Positions 15,748 to 22,015 are shown, numbered from the stretch's first letter. The stretch: DNA of 47,106 nucleotides from Candidatus Amesbacteria bacterium RIFCSPLOWO2_01_FULL_48_25 (GCA_001773695.1 MEXN01000003.1:91547-138652); one strand, 5' to 3'. The notes: generated by a model from the letters alone, not told the origin. Numbers and translations are program-made.

Positions 15748-16389
15748 TCAGGTGGGAGTAGGACTTGGGGTGGGAGAAGGAGTGGGTGTAGGTGTGGGAG
15801 TAGTGGTAGGAATGGCCGTGGGAGCAACAGTTGCCGAAGGTGTAGCTGGGGGAGTGGTTGTGGGGGGAATTGATGTTGGTTTGTTAAAAACCCCGGTGGC
15901 CTTCCCTGGAATAATATGGATAAGTCTGGCGATGATGCCGCTGGCACCCGGCTCGCCAACTGCTGCAATTCTTTGGCCTACCGCAAGGCTGGCTGAAGAG
16001 GTAGCCTGCGACTTGAACTTAATAATCGTGTCCGGGGTGAGAATTATGGTGTATTTGGAATTGGTTTTTTTCTGGTGAGCGAGAGTGATTGTATTGCCGT
16101 TTATTTCCTCGATTACGCCCATAACTGCCTTACGTTTGAGCTGGGCAGAGGAAGTGGCTTGTTTTACTTGAATTTTGTGAACTTTGAGATTACCGCTTTT
16201 GGTTGCCGGACGATTTGAGCTAATTTGGGTCAAAATTTCTTTGACTTTGGCCGGGCCAATTTTGAGTGGGAGTTTTTCTGAACTTATCATTCGCCCGGGG
16301 ATTAGATTCGGTTTGGCGGCTAAAGCGGTAAAGGACACCGAGATAGTGGTTAAAAAAATGAAGGTGGTTATAGCTAAGAAATATTTCAT
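15748..16389 (-). CDS. Secreted protein with OB-like beta region and Pro/Thr tail
   Basis: Signal peptide; GVIEEING..TL and LAVGQRIAAVG pattern; C-terminal PT repeats. Confidence 0.75.
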   Translation of the reverse strand: MKYFLAITTFIFLTTISVSFTALAAKPNLIPGRMISSEKLPLKIGPAKVKEILTQISSNRPATKSGNLKVHKIQVKQATSSAQLKRKAVMGVIEEINGNTITLAHQKKTNSKYTIILTPDTIIKFKSQATSSASLAVGQRIAAVGEPGASGIIARLIHIIPGKATGVFNKPTSIPPTTTPPATPSATVAPTAIPTTTPTPTPTPSPTPSPTPT

Positions 16390-16871
16390 TATTGATTTTG
16401 TGAATCGTAAACTACATCTATGCTTTGGCTAGATTCGTCACCATTATCGCCGAATGCCGTGACTGTAAGAGCGTTGCTGCCTTTCCCCAGAGTGATCGTG
16501 GTTTCAAACAAGCCGGAAGAGTCACTTTCAACCGAAGTCTGATCCGATTCAGTATAGACGAGGACGGTGGTATTGGGGAGAGTTTGGCCGCTGACAATTA
16601 TTTCACCGTCTACTGCCTGTTCGCCACTGGTGGGACTGGTTAATTTCAAAAATAAAGCTTCGGGGGTAGGAGAAGGCGGGATGACTTGGGCTAATTGAGG
16701 CTGGGGGCTAGGTTTAGTGGGCCGCTTGATCCACATGATAGCGCCGGTCGCGATCAAAGCCACTAATACGACTCCCAAAACTACATAGGGAAGAGCGCTA
16801 AACTTGGAGGAAATGACAACTGGAGGCACTTCGGGAGGTGGAGGAGTTAGGGGGGCTTGGAGTGCGTCCAT
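16389..16871 (-). CDS. Membrane-anchored protein with C-terminal Ig-like domain
   Basis: Single TM; LTSP...VSGQT...GLFETTITLGKGSNALTVTAF beta-sandwich pattern; TGaTACAAT 10 nt upstream. Confidence 0.8.
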   Translation of the reverse strand: MDALQAPLTPPPPEVPPVVISSKFSALPYVVLGVVLVALIATGAIMWIKRPTKPSPQPQLAQVIPPSPTPEALFLKLTSPTSGEQAVDGEIIVSGQTLPNTTVLVYTESDQTSVESDSSGLFETTITLGKGSNALTVTAFGDNGDESSQSIDVVYDSQNQ

Positions 16872-16892
16872 CAGAGTTAGTATTGTATCACA

Positions 16893-16941
16893 TTAATTAG
16901 GGTAATGGCACTTCTTGAAGTGTCAGCTAAATAGGGTACCG
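16893..16941 (-). repeat. Displaced secA 3' end (KKCHYPN*) fused to a conserved arm; att-like site 1
   Basis: Minus strand AAG AAG TGC CAT TAC CCT AAT TAA; + strand 16905-16941 matches site 2 at 32/37 nt once the 32-bp insert is removed. Confidence 0.8.
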
Positions 16942-16971
16942 CAAAAAAAGCTAGGTATCTTCTTTTCCCTA

Positions 16972-17631
16972 TTATAAATCTTCCTCTGTTGGAAGTCGTA
17001 CTCCATGGATAAAAAGAAAGTCTCTCGAACTCCCCAATAAACCCAGGATAAACCGTTCATAATCTGGGACGGTTAGTTCTCTTTTTCGCCTAGCGCCGCT
17101 GCCGCCAAAAACTGTTGCCTTTGTCATGGGAACTAAATGCAAGGGAGCATTTGTTTGCCTTATCTTTTCACCCAGATTTTCTCCAATTTGCCAGGGCAAA
17201 ATAACCGCACAAAACCGATCGGGCGAGACGTAATGTTTGATGGCAAGAGTGCCGGTGGGATCTTTCTTGGTAAGTTCTATGTTTTTGGTGTGCATTGCAA
17301 CTAATAAACTATTGGCAAAACGTGTTTCTAAAACTGCATCCGGTAAATCACTGATGTCACCCACTGTATAATCAGCTCTTTCTGCAATCACAGGAAATAT
17401 CGACCACAATCCCTTATATAATCGCTCCTTGACATCCACTTTAGTTCTCTTCCAGTCAATAAGCCCCAATACGCCACGAGCTACCCTTATCACGCATCCC
17501 TCAATCCATTCTGAATCTCTGGACTTTGAAGTGAACATTTCTTCGCCCATATGAGCCTGATTTTTCGCTGACATTAGGCCACGACCTAATATACTATTCA
17601 CAATATTTAATTGCCTGACCTCCACTTTCAT
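16972..17631 (-). CDS. Hypothetical protein (cassette 2 cargo)
   Basis: 219-aa ORF with its own TGGACG-17-TATAAT promoter (17668-17640). Confidence 0.75.
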   Translation of the reverse strand: MKVEVRQLNIVNSILGRGLMSAKNQAHMGEEMFTSKSRDSEWIEGCVIRVARGVLGLIDWKRTKVDVKERLYKGLWSIFPVIAERADYTVGDISDLPDAVLETRFANSLLVAMHTKNIELTKKDPTGTLAIKHYVSPDRFCAVILPWQIGENLGEKIRQTNAPLHLVPMTKATVFGGSGARRKRELTVPDYERFILGLLGSSRDFLFIHGVRLPTEEDL

Positions 17632-17639
17632 AGGAGCTA

Positions 17640-17668
17640 ATTATAAGTCTATAGGATATTTACGTCCA
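17640..17668 (-). promoter_or_regulatory. Sigma70-type promoter of cassette 2 gene
   Basis: TGGACG, 17-nt spacer, TATAAT, ending 8 nt before the ATG. Confidence 0.6.
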
Positions 17669-17682
17669 TCTGAGATATTAAA

Positions 17683-17763
17683 TTAGTTAGACTGGTGGCA
17701 TTTTTTGTCCTCCTTCGCCTAGGCTTTGGACGGACTACGAAGTGTTAGCTAAATGGGGTACCG
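17683..17763 (-). repeat. Displaced secA 3' end (KKCHQSN*) fused to the same arm; att-like site 2
   Basis: Minus strand AAA AAA TGC CAC CAG TCT AAC TAA; shares gtggcattttttg with secA 18672-18684 and the arm gaagtgtYagctaaatRgggtaccg with site 1. Confidence 0.8.
17707..17738 (-). repeat. GTAG-footed REP-like hairpin insertion (32 bp)
   Basis: GTAGTCCGTCCAAAGCCTAGGCGAAGGAGGAC; imperfect stem GTCC(G)TCC/GGAGGAC; absent from paralogous site 1. Confidence 0.65.
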
Positions 17764-17772
17764 TGCAAAAAA

Positions 17773-18522
17773 TTATTGTCTGGGAGAACATCTGGTTTCA
17801 TTTAGGCTAGATTTTTTTAGGCTGTTTAGATCGAACCTTACGTGCTCTTCTATGGCGGTACCAAGCCCTCCACTCTCCCAAGAATCTTTGTCGGGGCAGT
17901 TCTCCTTTGTAACTTGTGTGTCTACCCCTTTCCAATAGTCGAATTGTCCATTTTCTATGTTTATCGGCACGTTATATCCATCGCTAAATATCATTTGGCG
18001 TTTATATAAATCGTAGATCGCAATTTCCCTTAGTGGTGGTCCCGTACCAGAATCGATAAATAAGAAGTTATTGTATAATTCTTGATACCAATCTGCTCCC
18101 TCATTTAAGATTTCATAATCCTCTAAGTTTTTTGAGTAAATACAATTGAATTTTTGGTTTATAGTTGATTTGTACCTAATCAAGAAGTTGCCTGTTTGGT
18201 TATCAACGATTACAAAGAACTTGTCGTTTTCGTGACATTCGTCTTTTGAGGGGGTCGCCGTCGGTGAATCATTAGAGCTCGATGGGTATATAGTCGGGCT
18301 GATTTGGTAATATTTGGATACTATTAAAGGTGGTGGTGTAATACTGGACTTAATTGATCCGGTGGAGACGAGCTTCTCGTATTGTATACCGAGATAAAAG
18401 CCAGCAAACGGCAAAATTATAAACAAGGCCATGGCTAAAGTTTTGGATAAGGGGGTAACTGTGGTGAGGAATGTGGGCAACTTAATTGAATGTGACTCTT
18501 GCGATTGAATCTCTTGATCCAT
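17773..18522 (-). CDS. Membrane-anchored extracellular protein (cassette 1 cargo)
   Basis: N-terminal TTVTPLSKTLAMALFIILPFAGFYLG anchor, Pro/Ser/Thr linker, domain with 4 Cys; visibly AT-rich. Confidence 0.8.
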   Translation of the reverse strand: MDQEIQSQESHSIKLPTFLTTVTPLSKTLAMALFIILPFAGFYLGIQYEKLVSTGSIKSSITPPPLIVSKYYQISPTIYPSSSNDSPTATPSKDECHENDKFFVIVDNQTGNFLIRYKSTINQKFNCIYSKNLEDYEILNEGADWYQELYNNFLFIDSGTGPPLREIAIYDLYKRQMIFSDGYNVPINIENGQFDYWKGVDTQVTKENCPDKDSWESGGLGTAIEEHVRFDLNSLKKSSLNETRCSPRQ

Positions 18523-18659
18523 TAATTATTTATACCACATGGTTCCCGATGATTATTGGTAACTAGATCATTGAGGCTGGAGAATACAAAGAACAATTGA
18601 TGCTGTTTGTTCTTAAAACTACATTTTGCTTAACTGCTATATTACGCCTATGTATAGCC

Positions 18660-21392
18660 CTAATTTGGATAGTGGCATTTTTTGTATTTCTTTCCGCTGC
18701 CGCACCAGCAGGGGTCATTGCGGCCAAGTTTTTTGTGTTCGTTTTTAACAGAACCTTTTTGTAGATTAGAGAAGGCAGACATGAAGGCGGAAGTATCGGC
18801 TGGAGCGGCGCTGGGGAGGGCCATTTCCGGCTTGGTTTCGGTGGCTTGCCCCACTTCGCCAAAAGGCTTCGTTGGGGGTGCACTACCAACTTGGATTCTA
18901 AAGAGGCGCTTACCAAACTCGGTGTCGATTTGAGTTAGCAACCGCTCGAACATGGAAAAGGCTTCCGATTTGTATTCGACTAATGGATCGCGTTGGCCGT
19001 AACTACGAAGCCCAATACCTGAGCGCAGATCGTCTACGGCATCGAGGTGGTCAATCCACAAGGTGTCTATGGAGGACAGATAGGCAAATTTAACAATTTC
19101 TTTCCAAGCATCCTCACCAACCAAGGATTTATGACGGGTGATAGCATCGGAAATAATTTGACCTATCAAAGTGGATATGGCTTCGGCCGTGCCCAGACGA
19201 GAAAACTCCCCAGAAAGATTGTGCTTGGAGTCGTCATCGAACGGGACAATCTCGGCCAGAGCGTGGGAAATTGGCAAGACTTCGGATTCCACAATGCCAC
19301 GGGGGGCGTACATGTTAACTACGTTATTTAGTTGACTAGTTAATTTGCTGATTAGTTCAGAGTCTGTTATTTCGTTGTTTAAGACGCGATGGCGGAGACC
19401 GTAGACAATCTCGCGTTGTTTGTTCATGACGTCGTCGTACTCGACCACGCTTTTCCTGGCGTCGAAGTTAAAGCCTTCGACTTTAACTTGGGCCTGTTCT
19501 ATGGCACGACTTACCATACCGTGTTCGATGGGTTCATTTTCGGGGATTTTGAGAAAGCCCATGATTTTGGCTACCTGATCACCGCCAAAAATACGCATAA
19601 TGTCGTCGTCTAGGGCCAGATAAAACCGGGACGCGCCAGGATCCCCCTGGCGACCGGAGCGGCCACGGAGTTGATTGTCGATCCGCCGGGATTCATGACG
19701 TTCAGTGCCGATAACGTATAGACCACCTAAAGACACCACTTCGTCGTGGGCCTTTTTCCAGGTAGCTAGCGCCTTTTCATATTGCTTATCGGTGAGTTTG
19801 TCTTGGCCCAAGACGAATTTGGGGTTGAGAGGCGGGGTGCCGCCTAAAATAATATCCACTCCTCTCCCTGCGATATTGGTCGCTATGGTCACGGCCCCGT
19901 GACGTCCAGCCTCGGAAATTATCTGGGCCTCTTTTTCGTGGTTTTTGGCATTGAGAAGTTGATGAGGAATGCCCTTGTGCTTGAGAAGCTCGGAGACGAT
20001 TTCGTTTTTTTCAATAGAGGTAGTACCCACAAGAGTGGGCTGGCCACGCCGATGACAGGCGGCGATTTCATCGGCCAGAGCGCTGTACTTAGCCCGGGTA
20101 GTTTTGTAGACAATGTCCGCATTATCCTTGCGGACCATTGGCCGATGGGTGGGAATGACAATGACATCAAGGCTGTATATCTTTTTAAACTCTTCGGCTT
20201 CGGTGGCGGCAGTTCCTGTCATACCGGCGAGTTTGGTATACATACGGAAATAATTTTGAAAAGAGATAGTGGCTAAAGTCTTGGATTCCTGCTGGATAAC
20301 CACTCCTTCTTTGGCTTCCACTGCTTGGTGTATCCCTTCTGACCAGCGGCGGCCGGGCATGAGCCTCCCTGTAAATTCGTCCACAATGATTACCTGGTTG
20401 TCCCGAACGATGTAGTCCTTGTCGCGCAAAAATAGAGTGCGAGCTTTGAGGGCATTTTCCAGATGGTGAATGGTATCGAAATCCTTTTCGTAAAGATTGT
20501 CTATCCCCAGCAATTTTTCCACTTTTTGGACACCATGCTCGTTGAGGTTTGCGGTTCGGTGTTTTTCGTCTATGACATAATCGGTATCGGAAGATAAGCG
20601 TTCCACGAGCTTGGCAAAATCGTAATATTTTTGGGTGGGTTCGGTATCCGGCGCGGATATGATCAAGGGAGTACGGGCTTCATCAATTAAAATCGAGTCT
20701 ACTTCGTCCACTATGGCGAAATGGTGACCGCGTTGGGACATTTCCGACGTCGCTCCCACCATATTGTCGCGTAGGTAGTCGAAGCCGAACTCGTTGTTGG
20801 TGCCATAGGTGACATCTGCGCCGTAAGCCTCTTTGCGGGAAACCGGCCTCAAGTGGGCAAGCCTGTCGTCCCCGTGTGAGGTGTCCAAATACTCAGGGTC
20901 GTAAATAAACGATTTTTCGTGAACAATTACGCCCACGGACAAACCCAAGAGATGAAAGGTGGGGCCGTTCCAGCCGGCGTCGCGGCGAGCCAGATAATCA
21001 TTGACGGTAACCAAATGGGTGCCTTTGCCGGATAGAGAGTTGAGATAGAGGGCGGGGATAGCAGATAAAGTCTTCCCCTCGCCTGTTTTTTGTTCAGCCA
21101 CACGTCCTTCGTGGAAAGCCATGGCAGCTATTAACTGGACGTCGAAGTGGCGAAGACCGATAGCACGGTCCGAGGCTTCTCGGACGGCTGCAAGAGCCTC
21201 GGGTAAGAGATCGTCCAACGTGGCGCCATCGGCTAGACGATTTTTTAGATCCGCTGTTATAGCGGCAAAATCTTTAGGGGTTTTGAGTTTGGCAAGTTTA
21301 GTCTCAAAAGCGTTAATCTGACTGATTTTGGCCTGAAAACGATCGATTTCTTTTTGGTTGAGATCGAGAAAACGAGTGAGAAATTTAAACAC
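18660..21392 (-). CDS. secA: Preprotein translocase subunit SecA
   Basis: KTGEGKT, VDEVDSILIDEARTPLIIS, QLRGRSGRQGDPG, C-terminal SEC-C GRNDPCWCGSGKKYKKCH. Likely GTG start at 21392, 6 nt after TATAAT. Confidence 0.98.
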   Translation of the reverse strand: MFKFLTRFLDLNQKEIDRFQAKISQINAFETKLAKLKTPKDFAAITADLKNRLADGATLDDLLPEALAAVREASDRAIGLRHFDVQLIAAMAFHEGRVAEQKTGEGKTLSAIPALYLNSLSGKGTHLVTVNDYLARRDAGWNGPTFHLLGLSVGVIVHEKSFIYDPEYLDTSHGDDRLAHLRPVSRKEAYGADVTYGTNNEFGFDYLRDNMVGATSEMSQRGHHFAIVDEVDSILIDEARTPLIISAPDTEPTQKYYDFAKLVERLSSDTDYVIDEKHRTANLNEHGVQKVEKLLGIDNLYEKDFDTIHHLENALKARTLFLRDKDYIVRDNQVIIVDEFTGRLMPGRRWSEGIHQAVEAKEGVVIQQESKTLATISFQNYFRMYTKLAGMTGTAATEAEEFKKIYSLDVIVIPTHRPMVRKDNADIVYKTTRAKYSALADEIAACHRRGQPTLVGTTSIEKNEIVSELLKHKGIPHQLLNAKNHEKEAQIISEAGRHGAVTIATNIAGRGVDIILGGTPPLNPKFVLGQDKLTDKQYEKALATWKKAHDEVVSLGGLYVIGTERHESRRIDNQLRGRSGRQGDPGASRFYLALDDDIMRIFGGDQVAKIMGFLKIPENEPIEHGMVSRAIEQAQVKVEGFNFDARKSVVEYDDVMNKQREIVYGLRHRVLNNEITDSELISKLTSQLNNVVNMYAPRGIVESEVLPISHALAEIVPFDDDSKHNLSGEFSRLGTAEAISTLIGQIISDAITRHKSLVGEDAWKEIVKFAYLSSIDTLWIDHLDAVDDLRSGIGLRSYGQRDPLVEYKSEAFSMFERLLTQIDTEFGKRLFRIQVGSAPPTKPFGEVGQATETKPEMALPSAAPADTSAFMSAFSNLQKGSVKNEHKKLGRNDPCWCGSGKKYKKCHYPN

Positions 21393-21409
21393 GTTTCGAT
21401 TATACCTGT

Positions 21410-22015
21410 TTACTGGCAAACTAGCAGGAGGTTGGTGAGACTGCGAATGGGGGTGACCGAAGTGAAGTATTTTTTCAGCTTTTCGGCTAATTCGAGAGCA
21501 GCGTGTTTTTGAGAGTCAGAATGAAAGAGATGATTAAGAATTACTAATTGACCTAATTGATCTAATTGACCTAAAAATTTATTAGAATACACGAATTTGG
21601 GAATTTGGTCACCCAAATACAAATCAACCAAAATATAGTCGAAGTGATCTTTGGTCTTGAATAAATAGTCATTGGCGTCTTTTATAACAAATTTCAGGTT
21701 GGGGATTTGGTCGAGGCCGAAATGTTTTTTACCGATGGCGATCATTATGGGATCGATTTCCACACCGATTATTTTGACGGGCTGAGGAATGAGGCGAGCC
21801 ACAGTGCCAGTGGCTAAGCCTAAAATTAGCCAAGATTTTAGCTTTAAGTCGATGGTCTTTAGCTTTTGAAAAACTGGCTGCCAGACGTCTTTGATGATTC
21901 CCCCACTCTGGGTCCAGTAACCGGTAGAAACGTACTTATATCCCCAGCCTTGCATGACTTTGATCTTTCCAGAATATGGTGAGTCAAATTCTTCTAATAT
22001 TTTAGGCCCAAACAT
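21410..22015 (-). CDS. Spermidine synthase-like SAM-dependent methyltransferase
   Basis: LILGLATG, GVEIDP, DA, FDYILVDLY. Confidence 0.8.
   Translation of the reverse strand: MFGPKILEEFDSPYSGKIKVMQGWGYKYVSTGYWTQSGGIIKDVWQPVFQKLKTIDLKLKSWLILGLATGTVARLIPQPVKIIGVEIDPIMIAIGKKHFGLDQIPNLKFVIKDANDYLFKTKDHFDYILVDLYLGDQIPKFVYSNKFLGQLDQLGQLVILNHLFHSDSQKHAALELAEKLKKYFTSVTPIRSLTNLLLVCQ

Follow-up and report, generated by a model that had tools for sequence, protein, structure and literature searches.

Why should the last codons of an essential gene appear three times in succession on the same chromosome? This question is raised by the secA locus in a 47,106-nucleotide stretch of DNA from Candidatus Amesbacteria bacterium RIFCSPLOWO2_01_FULL_48_25 (GCA_001773695.1 MEXN01000003.1:91547-138652), here called the window. 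The final 24 nucleotides (nt) of secA, which run from two lysine codons to the stop codon and which we call the tail, recur twice as orphan copies downstream of the gene, and next to each orphan copy lies another sequence of 24-25 nt that we call the arm. We propose that the end of secA is the chromosomal attachment site (attB) of a large serine recombinase (LSR), and that the window contains a composite island of two recombinase-less cassettes accumulated at this site, a reading that we consider probable.

All parts of the island lie on the minus strand. The live end of secA, tail 1 (AAAAAATGCCACTATCCAAATTAG, encoding KKCHYPN*), occupies positions 18660-18683, and is followed by a first cassette whose cargo is an open reading frame (ORF) of 249 aa (17773-18522), by arm 1 (GGTACCCCATTTAGCTAACACTTC on the minus strand; 17739-17763) and by tail 2 (17683-17706), an orphan in which two residues are changed (KKCHQSN*). 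A 32-nt insert (17707-17738) sits exactly between arm 1 and tail 2. The second cassette carries an ORF of 219 aa (16972-17631) and is followed by arm 2 (GGTACCCTATTTAGCTGACACTTC on the minus strand; 16917-16941) and by tail 3 (16893-16916), an orphan that again encodes KKCHYPN* and after which the native downstream genes come. A degenerate tail pattern, AARAARTGYCAYNNNNNNAAYTRR, has three matches in the window, all on the minus strand, where 100 shuffles lead us to expect none, and the arm pattern GAAGTGTYAGCTAAATRGGGTACCG matches only at the two arms, with zero matches expected. The orphan tails are 977 and 1767 bp downstream of the live tail, giving units of 977 and 790 bp. Tails 1 and 3 differ at six positions, all of them third codon positions, and the two arm/tail sites are identical at 32 of 37 nt once the insert is removed. 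A dyad, TGACACTTC-AA-GAAGTGCCA on the minus strand, spans the junction between arm 2 and tail 3.

These figures had been given in an original prediction made for this locus, and each was reproduced when we recomputed it. Its proposal that cassettes enter repeatedly at the end of secA, each swapping the tail, likewise agrees with our results: DNA segments have inserted site-specifically at the two lysine codons, 24 nt ahead of the stop, and every insertion supplied a new tail while displacing the previous one downstream. The prediction also assigned to each unit a single ORF with its own -10 element. The single long ORFs stand, intact and with unit flanks of only 9-137 nt. The promoters are weakly supported: a promoter-like site (TGGACG-17-TATAAT) does precede the 219-aa ORF, but the region holds six such sites against 5.2 expected from shuffles, which is no excess. 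Further arm copies, for which the prediction looked to the rest of the genome, did not appear, and the 0.94-Mb genome carries the arm at these two places beside secA only.

The arrangement is physically sound. The stretch is present in 20 listed sequencing runs from 17 studies, several of which may represent one campaign or source, and Logan contigs from four runs cross the tail 3/arm, tail 2/arm and secA/cassette 1 junctions with zero differences. Every junction is thus bridged, and therefore the region is not an assembly artefact, which disposes of the strain-chimeric misassembly that had been named as a possible refutation. In the contigs of these four runs, this strain shows no joint that lacks the cassettes. 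A single record of low depth (X18) has tail 3 connected to tail 1 through 39 other letters; we read it as a tail-spacer-tail unit of another organism and not as an excision product.

What, then, is the arm? The answer comes from two relatives, labelled G115 and G219 (other genomes are labelled in the same way, the window's own being G000), in which the arm matches on the opposite strand and within the live end of secA. SecA in these genomes ends ...KKCH(I/L)NREPQ..., and the codons past the histidine are the reverse complement of the arm, in frame with secA. The next gene, convergent with secA, encodes a 522-aa protein with the Resolvase, Recombinase and Zn_ribbon_recom domains of an LSR, which is 84% identical between the families of G115 and G219 and 50% identical in a third genome, G155. 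The far end of the G115 element, about 13 kb away, consists of the arm and a decayed secA tail. That of the G155 element, about 12.6 kb away, consists of a divergent arm and a tail and then a HAD-family gene, which in G012 and G002 is found at or shortly past the end of secA. The spacing between the left and right junctions (attL and attR) at a further locus, L115, is about 9.6 kb. The order at these loci is secA-B, P'...LSR...P, B'-tail, the arrangement of hybrid attL and attR junctions that an LSR element has once it is integrated. An earlier candidate interpretation, that the arm is a degenerate direct copy of the tail (TACCCTAtTTAg), was dropped, the arm being the inverse of the element-type secA end.

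When public sequence collections were searched with an alignment of the three LSRs from G115, G219 and G155, the results were consistent. All 13 loci of this clade (48-100% identity) in the GTDB reference genomes have the secA tail fused to the reverse-complemented arm beside the LSR stop codon, in hosts from the Roizman-, Davies-, Woese- and Gottesmanbacteria and other Microgenomates. Metagenome contigs supplied 13 loci with close LSRs, and secA is fused to the reverse-complemented arm in all nine that include the flank; the metagenome and reference sets overlap and are not independent, both of them taking in G115, G219 and G155. The candidate 522-aa integrase is 72-92% identical across the Roizman-, Davies-, Woese- and Gottesmanbacteria. 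The best-scoring named family for the secA LSR is CcrB, with a score of 142.7 bits where the cut-off is 900.

The symmetry of the att sites also speaks for an LSR. The P half-site and the reverse complement of P' are alike in two blocks, an outer one (GGTWCCCTAT) and an inner one (GCAYTTC), placed around a central AA; only the inner block is present in the host tail. In G115, the one genome where both junctions could be compared, these share only C-A-A at the switch point, and therefore a 2-bp serine crossover fits whereas a tyrosine recombinase overlap of 6-8 bp does not. The arms in the window are of the P form (...GCTRRCA..., in which glutamine or a stop replaces histidine in the inverse reading) and not of the P' form; therefore both sites in the window are attR-type junctions, each arm corresponding to the P half-site of the LSR attachment site attP. 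Taking these observations together, we find it very likely that the arm+tail junctions are products of LSR recombination at attB in secA.

A side observation concerns SecA itself. At eight of the 13 LSR loci (L110, L113, L114, L118 and L119-L122), the element does more than complete secA and lengthens the protein by a conserved stretch of about 30 residues beyond the zinc-finger histidine (...QE.EAYNL[YF].N...EW.RR[FY]GKK*). The extension is also found in G115 (L081), and a related version occurs in the LSR subclade of 48% identity. Its conservation suggests that the new SecA C-terminus is under selection.

The following mechanism would account for the island. The attB site would comprise the last 24 nt of secA and the codons just upstream, with the B half upstream and the tail serving as the B'-type half-site. 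LSRs of the secA clade are carried by integrative elements of roughly 10-13 kb that reside in Microgenomates, a group within the candidate phyla radiation (CPR). Recombination at the central AA would join secA to the other half-site of the element, thereby creating a new secA end, and would leave the arm and the old tail as attR on the far side. Each cassette starts, on the side facing secA, with a full tail of the native type, such that its insertion would rebuild an attB-like secA end, and because of this, insertion could occur serially. Live tail 1 would have come in with cassette 1, tail 2 would be a displaced earlier secA end, and the unit nearest secA would be the most recent arrival. 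We infer that the window cassettes were inserted in this order by such an LSR supplied in trans, with crossover at the AA dinucleotide, the point at which the 32-nt insert is now found. Tail 3 is most likely the original secA end of this lineage.

Relatives differ in what they carry at the same place. We located secA in 39 of 41 related genomes and, in the family labelled f1, scanned as much as 8 kb beyond the gene. In 11 of the 23 f1 members with a secA match there are orphan tails or an arm junction: three orphan tails in G013; two each in G004, G017 and G022; two and a frameshifted third in G010; at least one each in G007, G009, G012, G016 and G018; and an arm junction on the continuing contig in G006. 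The other 12 have none in the stretch fetched, which was at most 1.6 kb for G005, G019, G023 and G024. Clustered tails also occur in other families (G026, G037, G066, G136, G246, G281 and G296, from a scan of 301 genomes of the class), and the arm is spread over many families, with 26 matches at two or fewer mismatches in the same 301 genomes. We relied on this set and on the fetched regions since the scan at three mismatches was noisy (39 matches versus about 22 in the control). Among 18 additional regions that were fetched, 18 of 19 model matches consist of the arm followed directly by a secA-type tail. In seven of these regions, a secA gene on the same strand lies 0.6-2.8 kb upstream of the arm, and in G086 this distance is 5.9 kb. 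Four others have secA on one contig and the arm on another, both near contig ends.

The orphan tails also carry a record of their origin. Arm-linked tails mirror the SecA endings specific to each family (for example KKCHYPQL..., or KKCHMN... in G069), and therefore they look like displaced host secA ends. From a count of 33 such tails, reached after two misplaced junctions (G000 1295 and G016 1694) were dropped from 35 rows, 26 still encode x-x-C-H and seven have lost the cysteine codon, the histidine codon or the frame. Decay increases clearly with distance from secA in G013, G016 and G022. In G037 (L058), as a separate observation, the live SecA ends KHCHLDKDLGR* and the two orphan tails both read KKCHYPN*. 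Three expectations of the original prediction are supported by these surveys, namely that the arm would be tied to secA tails elsewhere, that occupancy, number and content of the cassettes would vary among relatives, and that orphan tails were once live ends of secA.

The most direct indication that such units move comes from G006 and G013, members of two separate genera. Identity between their secA regions is 74.2% over 2892 nt, and the two genomes share a 4.86-kb unit, encoding five biosynthetic genes and lacking a recombinase, for which identity reaches 92-93% (3944 + 746 nt). This high similarity begins with the first base of the tail and ends with the last base of the arm. The tail of this unit is the live secA end in G006, and in G013 it is an orphan, the unit being second in a longer array. 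For this one unit, the comparison shows what appears to be the transfer of a recombinase-less [tail...arm] segment between lineages as a module. Limits that coincide exactly with the start of the tail and the end of the arm argue against random decay as the only origin of the units.

Cargo in relatives is varied, and includes Fic, BrnT with a CopG-type antitoxin, Phd/ParE, HepT, an S26 signal peptidase, a NUDIX protein, a shikimate-dehydrogenase-like gene, a five-gene cluster of radical-SAM, GT2 and Mur-ligase genes, and ORFans. The S26 signal peptidase is found in the first cassette of G037, where a secretion-related cargo thus stands beside the gene for the secretion motor. The two cargo ORFs in the window belong to no Pfam family, and PADLOC, run on seven cargo proteins, gave no assignment for any of them. 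The 249-aa product has an N-terminal hydrophobic segment, as judged by eye, and its homologues (35-39% identity) are encoded by the gene immediately before an arm in G017 and G016. Next to members of this diverged family, the arm keeps 18-20 of 24 nt, a hint that it may be under constraint. The 219-aa product has only four homologues among 5.8 billion proteins, all distant and unnamed, and AlphaFold2 run on it without an alignment gave a pLDDT (predicted local distance difference test) score of 35, too low to be of use. The cassettes have a G+C content of 39-42% (0.39 and 0.42), compared with 50% for secA and 47.5% for the window.

The secA gene is listed as 18660-21419 on the minus strand, encoding 919 aa, with alignments to relatives beginning at about residue 10. 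Its product has the SecA_DEAD, P-loop_SecA, SecA_SW and SecA_PP_bind domains and a C-terminal SEC-C zinc motif. The first gene past the island (16389-16871, minus strand) encodes a membrane-anchored Ig-like protein of 160 aa (Glucodextran_B/Big_6), and both this gene and the next one, for a DUF5666 protein, are syntenic with genes downstream of secA in G003. An Rfam search of positions 16000-19500 gave no match. A near-palindromic motif, GGYCTATAYATAGG, comes after many tails, both cassette-borne and terminal (18645-18659 in the window; also in G004, G010 and G022), and could act as a promoter or operator, or else belong to a larger site.

Several of our findings weigh against the proposal that an LSR built this island. 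There is no LSR of the secA clade in the window's genome, and the window units are thus non-autonomous. The sole LSR of this genome (516 aa; G000:C5:28498-30045, L055; 76% identical in G024) is only 21% identical to the secA-clade enzyme, and LSR homologues of this broad kind occur in 154 of 301 class genomes (E <= 1e-30; the tally includes G091) regardless of arrays. In IMG/VR we found no close LSR (best 25% identity), no palindromic attP pattern, and no free or circular form. All LSR elements that were seen give secA an element-type end (CH-LNREPQ...) and not the native-type tail borne by the cassettes, and their genes are not homologous to array cargo. With a native-type tail at its head, a circularized cassette would carry an attR-like site (P plus a B'-type tail). 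To our knowledge, canonical phage LSRs act in one direction only and leave attR-like sites unrecombined with attB, and because of this directionality native-tail cassettes are hard to explain unless the enzyme has a relaxed, Ccr-like behaviour. Because the 32-nt insert interrupts it, the junction of arm 1 and tail 2 departs from a clean product of recombination and may no longer function. The order of decay is reversed in the window, whose middle tail has changed more than the outer orphan, such that the decay pattern as a whole is mixed.

Broad-kind LSRs often number several per genome of about 1 Mb in the class, and the window's genome also has a Y1_Tnp-like ORF (G000:C1:26396-26629, L056). 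We considered the genome's own LSR as the trans-acting enzyme and rejected it, given its 21% identity and the lack of any link between its homologues and arrays. In G044 (contig 45), a sequence resembling the tail lies close to an LSR; it falls inside a 1342-aa ORF, and we set it aside as a chance match. None of the LSR-less arrays that were fetched contains an LSR homologue, and no recombinase is encoded in the 8.4-kb first unit of G013 or in the shared 4.9-kb unit. The original prediction had called for a search for a co-occurring tyrosine or serine recombinase: the genome has the LSR just described and two Xer-like tyrosine recombinases, none of them from the secA clade.

The difficulty posed by native-type tails could possibly be overcome in three ways: by relaxed Ccr-like behaviour of the LSR, by accretion through alternative attR sites, or by regarding the units as relics. 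In the last case, they would be the right-hand remnants of LSR elements whose recombinase side was deleted and whose native secA end was restored from the DNA of a relative, leaving them immobile. The rarity of the secA-type LSR (three of 301 class genomes at >=49% identity) next to the abundance of arm junctions is what such a history would leave behind, as are the seven decayed tails among the 33, the insert that breaks the arm 1/tail 2 junction, and the presence of GGYCTATAYATAGG after cassette-head and terminal tails alike (G000, G004, G010 and G022), as if tail and flank had come from another chromosome. It is far less apparent why remnants should be compact, with intact ORFs and short flanks, why the arm should be better conserved than the neighbouring cargo, or why the genes of LSR elements should be unlike those of the arrays, and random deletion with patch repair would not be expected to give the exact limits of the unit shared by G006 and G013. 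We therefore judge a purely relic origin to be unlikely. Whether the cassettes can still be mobilised, or have become fixed as relics, is a separate matter, on which we lean slightly towards doubt.

Explanations that dispense with an LSR fare worse. A homing endonuclease could cut the secA tail, with repair of the break copying in foreign DNA and a replacement tail, and a plausible enzyme does exist: a 200-aa protein with HNH_repeat and weak HNH matches is encoded convergently with the secA stop in three of 27 f1 genomes and nowhere else there (L039:298-900 in G017; G009:C41:511-1110; G013:C6:97521-97886). An orphan secA tail comes after this gene, and secA at these loci has a longer end, CWCGKKKPDGxPVKYKHCHYPN*, a SEC-C variant. 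However, the window's genome has no such gene, the arm is already explained by the LSR attP, and the endonuclease-linked orphan tail of G017 lacks an arm and has a different, longer homology boundary (KKYKICHFPN*). An HNH origin of the island is thus very unlikely, and the HNH gene is instead a second, independent invader of the secA site. The integron-like array of the original prediction, or one of Xer type resembling IMEX (integrative mobile elements exploiting Xer) or pdif modules, would rely for its movement on a tyrosine recombinase that recognizes folded sites or sites like dif. Its appeal lies in the small, single-gene, recombinase-less units in one orientation, in the toxin-antitoxin cargo of relatives, and in the two tyrosine recombinases of the genome. 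Yet both of these enzymes, encoded on other contigs, match XerC/XerD best and reach only 60-68 bits against the model for integron integrases, whose cut-off is 265; the arm/tail stretch folds no better than shuffled sequences (z = -0.7), in a manner unlike attC, and has no Rfam match; the inverted repeats are 2 nt apart and not 6-8; the junctions of G115 switch at C-A-A; and at 13 of 13 loci the arm forms a fusion with secA next to the gene for an LSR. We consequently abandoned this mechanism as highly improbable. Chance repeats or a chimeric assembly are scarcely credible, given that zero matches are expected, that the same anatomy recurs in dozens of genomes, and that contigs of four other runs cross all junctions.

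One class of structures is not accounted for. Nine genomes (G012, G016, G018, G025, G026, G066, G246, G281 and G136) contain mini-units in which two or three intact secA tails are 48-135 bp apart and separated by a hairpin (for example G066:C1:195128-195255 and G026:C1:224320-224431), and the 32-nt insert of the window is related to the mini-unit spacers of G012, G016, G018 and G025. In five of ten mini-units, the stop codon is the site of an inverted copy of the inner 9 nt of the first tail, complementary to it at 8 or all 9 bases, and this copy covaries with the tail (GAAGTGTCA/TGACACTTC, GCGATGTCA/TGACATCGC and AAGATGTCA/TGACATCTT). A second small hairpin follows the inverted copy, in one case with a UUCG loop. 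Folding compared with shuffles gives z = -3.3 for the G016 mini-unit and z = +0.9 for the insert region of the window, which is not significantly structured. Translational recoding across the mini-units was rejected, as the spacers of 24-64 nt keep no constant frame. The LSR model leaves these tail-hairpin-tail units without a mechanism.

Among known systems, the closer analogue of the island would be the composite of staphylococcal cassette chromosome (SCC) and pseudo-SCC elements at rlmH; the island would be neither a member of that group nor an integron. As described in the parts of PMC13739063 on which we draw, SCC elements integrate at the 3' end of rlmH by means of the LSRs CcrAB or CcrC, at att sites in which degenerate half-sites, inverted relative to each other, flank a central dinucleotide; three of these half-sites are alike and the fourth lies in the gene. 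In composites, the same parts of that source take the outermost unit to be the oldest and report many att-bounded units without ccr. The likeness to SCC and pseudo-SCC ('SCI') elements at rlmH (orfX), judged from those sections, extends to the use of the last codons of a conserved gene, completion of the frame by the element, an LSR, a half-site pattern of three alike and the fourth within the gene, a copy of the gene end at each junction, tandem units bounded by gene-end copies and terminal inverted repeats, an outermost unit taken as the oldest, and units without a recombinase (PMC13739063). Relative to the SCC features given there, the target here is secA, the hosts are Microgenomates, the LSR falls far below the Ccr cut-off of 900 bits, and the central dinucleotide is AA and not GA (PMC13739063). 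A unit here can also measure as little as 0.6-1 kb and hold one gene only, and resistance genes were not seen. SecA receives a new and different C-terminus from the LSR elements, whereas units that lack a recombinase bring a tail of the native type.

The large serine integrases of phages and of integrative and conjugative elements (phiC31, Bxb1 and A118 types) share with the secA clade the domain set, the hybrid attL and attR, and the integrase gene beside one att site; their attP is an imperfect palindrome of roughly 50 bp, which the P and reverse-complemented P' blocks around AA, the putative crossover, would resemble. The cis-mobilizable elements (CIMEs) found at the 3' end of fda in streptococci are recombinase-less, att-flanked units that can be carried along when a related autonomous element, which uses a tyrosine integrase, integrates beside them and leaves by way of an outer site. 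The cassettes resemble CIMEs in being att-flanked, recombinase-less units at a gene 3' end, and are unlike them in their putative dependence on a serine recombinase; no LSR element was seen beside an array. Integron arrays are alike in their small, mostly single-gene, recombinase-less units of one orientation on a fixed platform, with toxin-antitoxin cargo in relatives, but IntI, attI/Pc and attC hairpins are all lacking here, the platform is inside the coding end of an essential gene, and the chemistry is that of serine recombinases. Free-standing HNH homing endonuclease genes use the same secA site in three relatives and leave an orphan tail, but they are absent from the window and unlinked to the arm. 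In open-access full text and bioRxiv, we found no description of secA as a serine-recombinase attachment site or of such arrays in CPR bacteria.

The CPR, Microgenomates included, have almost no genetic tools, and their mobile elements are poorly known. The findings described above offer a testable integration system for these organisms, consisting of an attB of about 45 bp in an essential, universal gene, an attP half-site, and a candidate integrase of 522 aa. They also place an SCC-type logic, with serial insertion into last codons, recombinase-less passengers and orphan ends that serve as a historical record, far outside the staphylococci, and reveal elements that change the C-terminus of SecA itself. 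A bolder interpretation, which we offer as a speculation with the odds against it, is that the secA tail is a general platform for gene capture and exchange in Microgenomates, where a rare but widely travelling LSR with relaxed, Ccr-like site choice would shuttle modules ranging from single genes to 5 kb between genera, the mini-units of 48-90 bp perhaps being the smallest modules, and each event would rewrite the zinc-finger end of SecA. If this were true, mobile DNA would tune or exploit protein export in bacteria with very small genomes.

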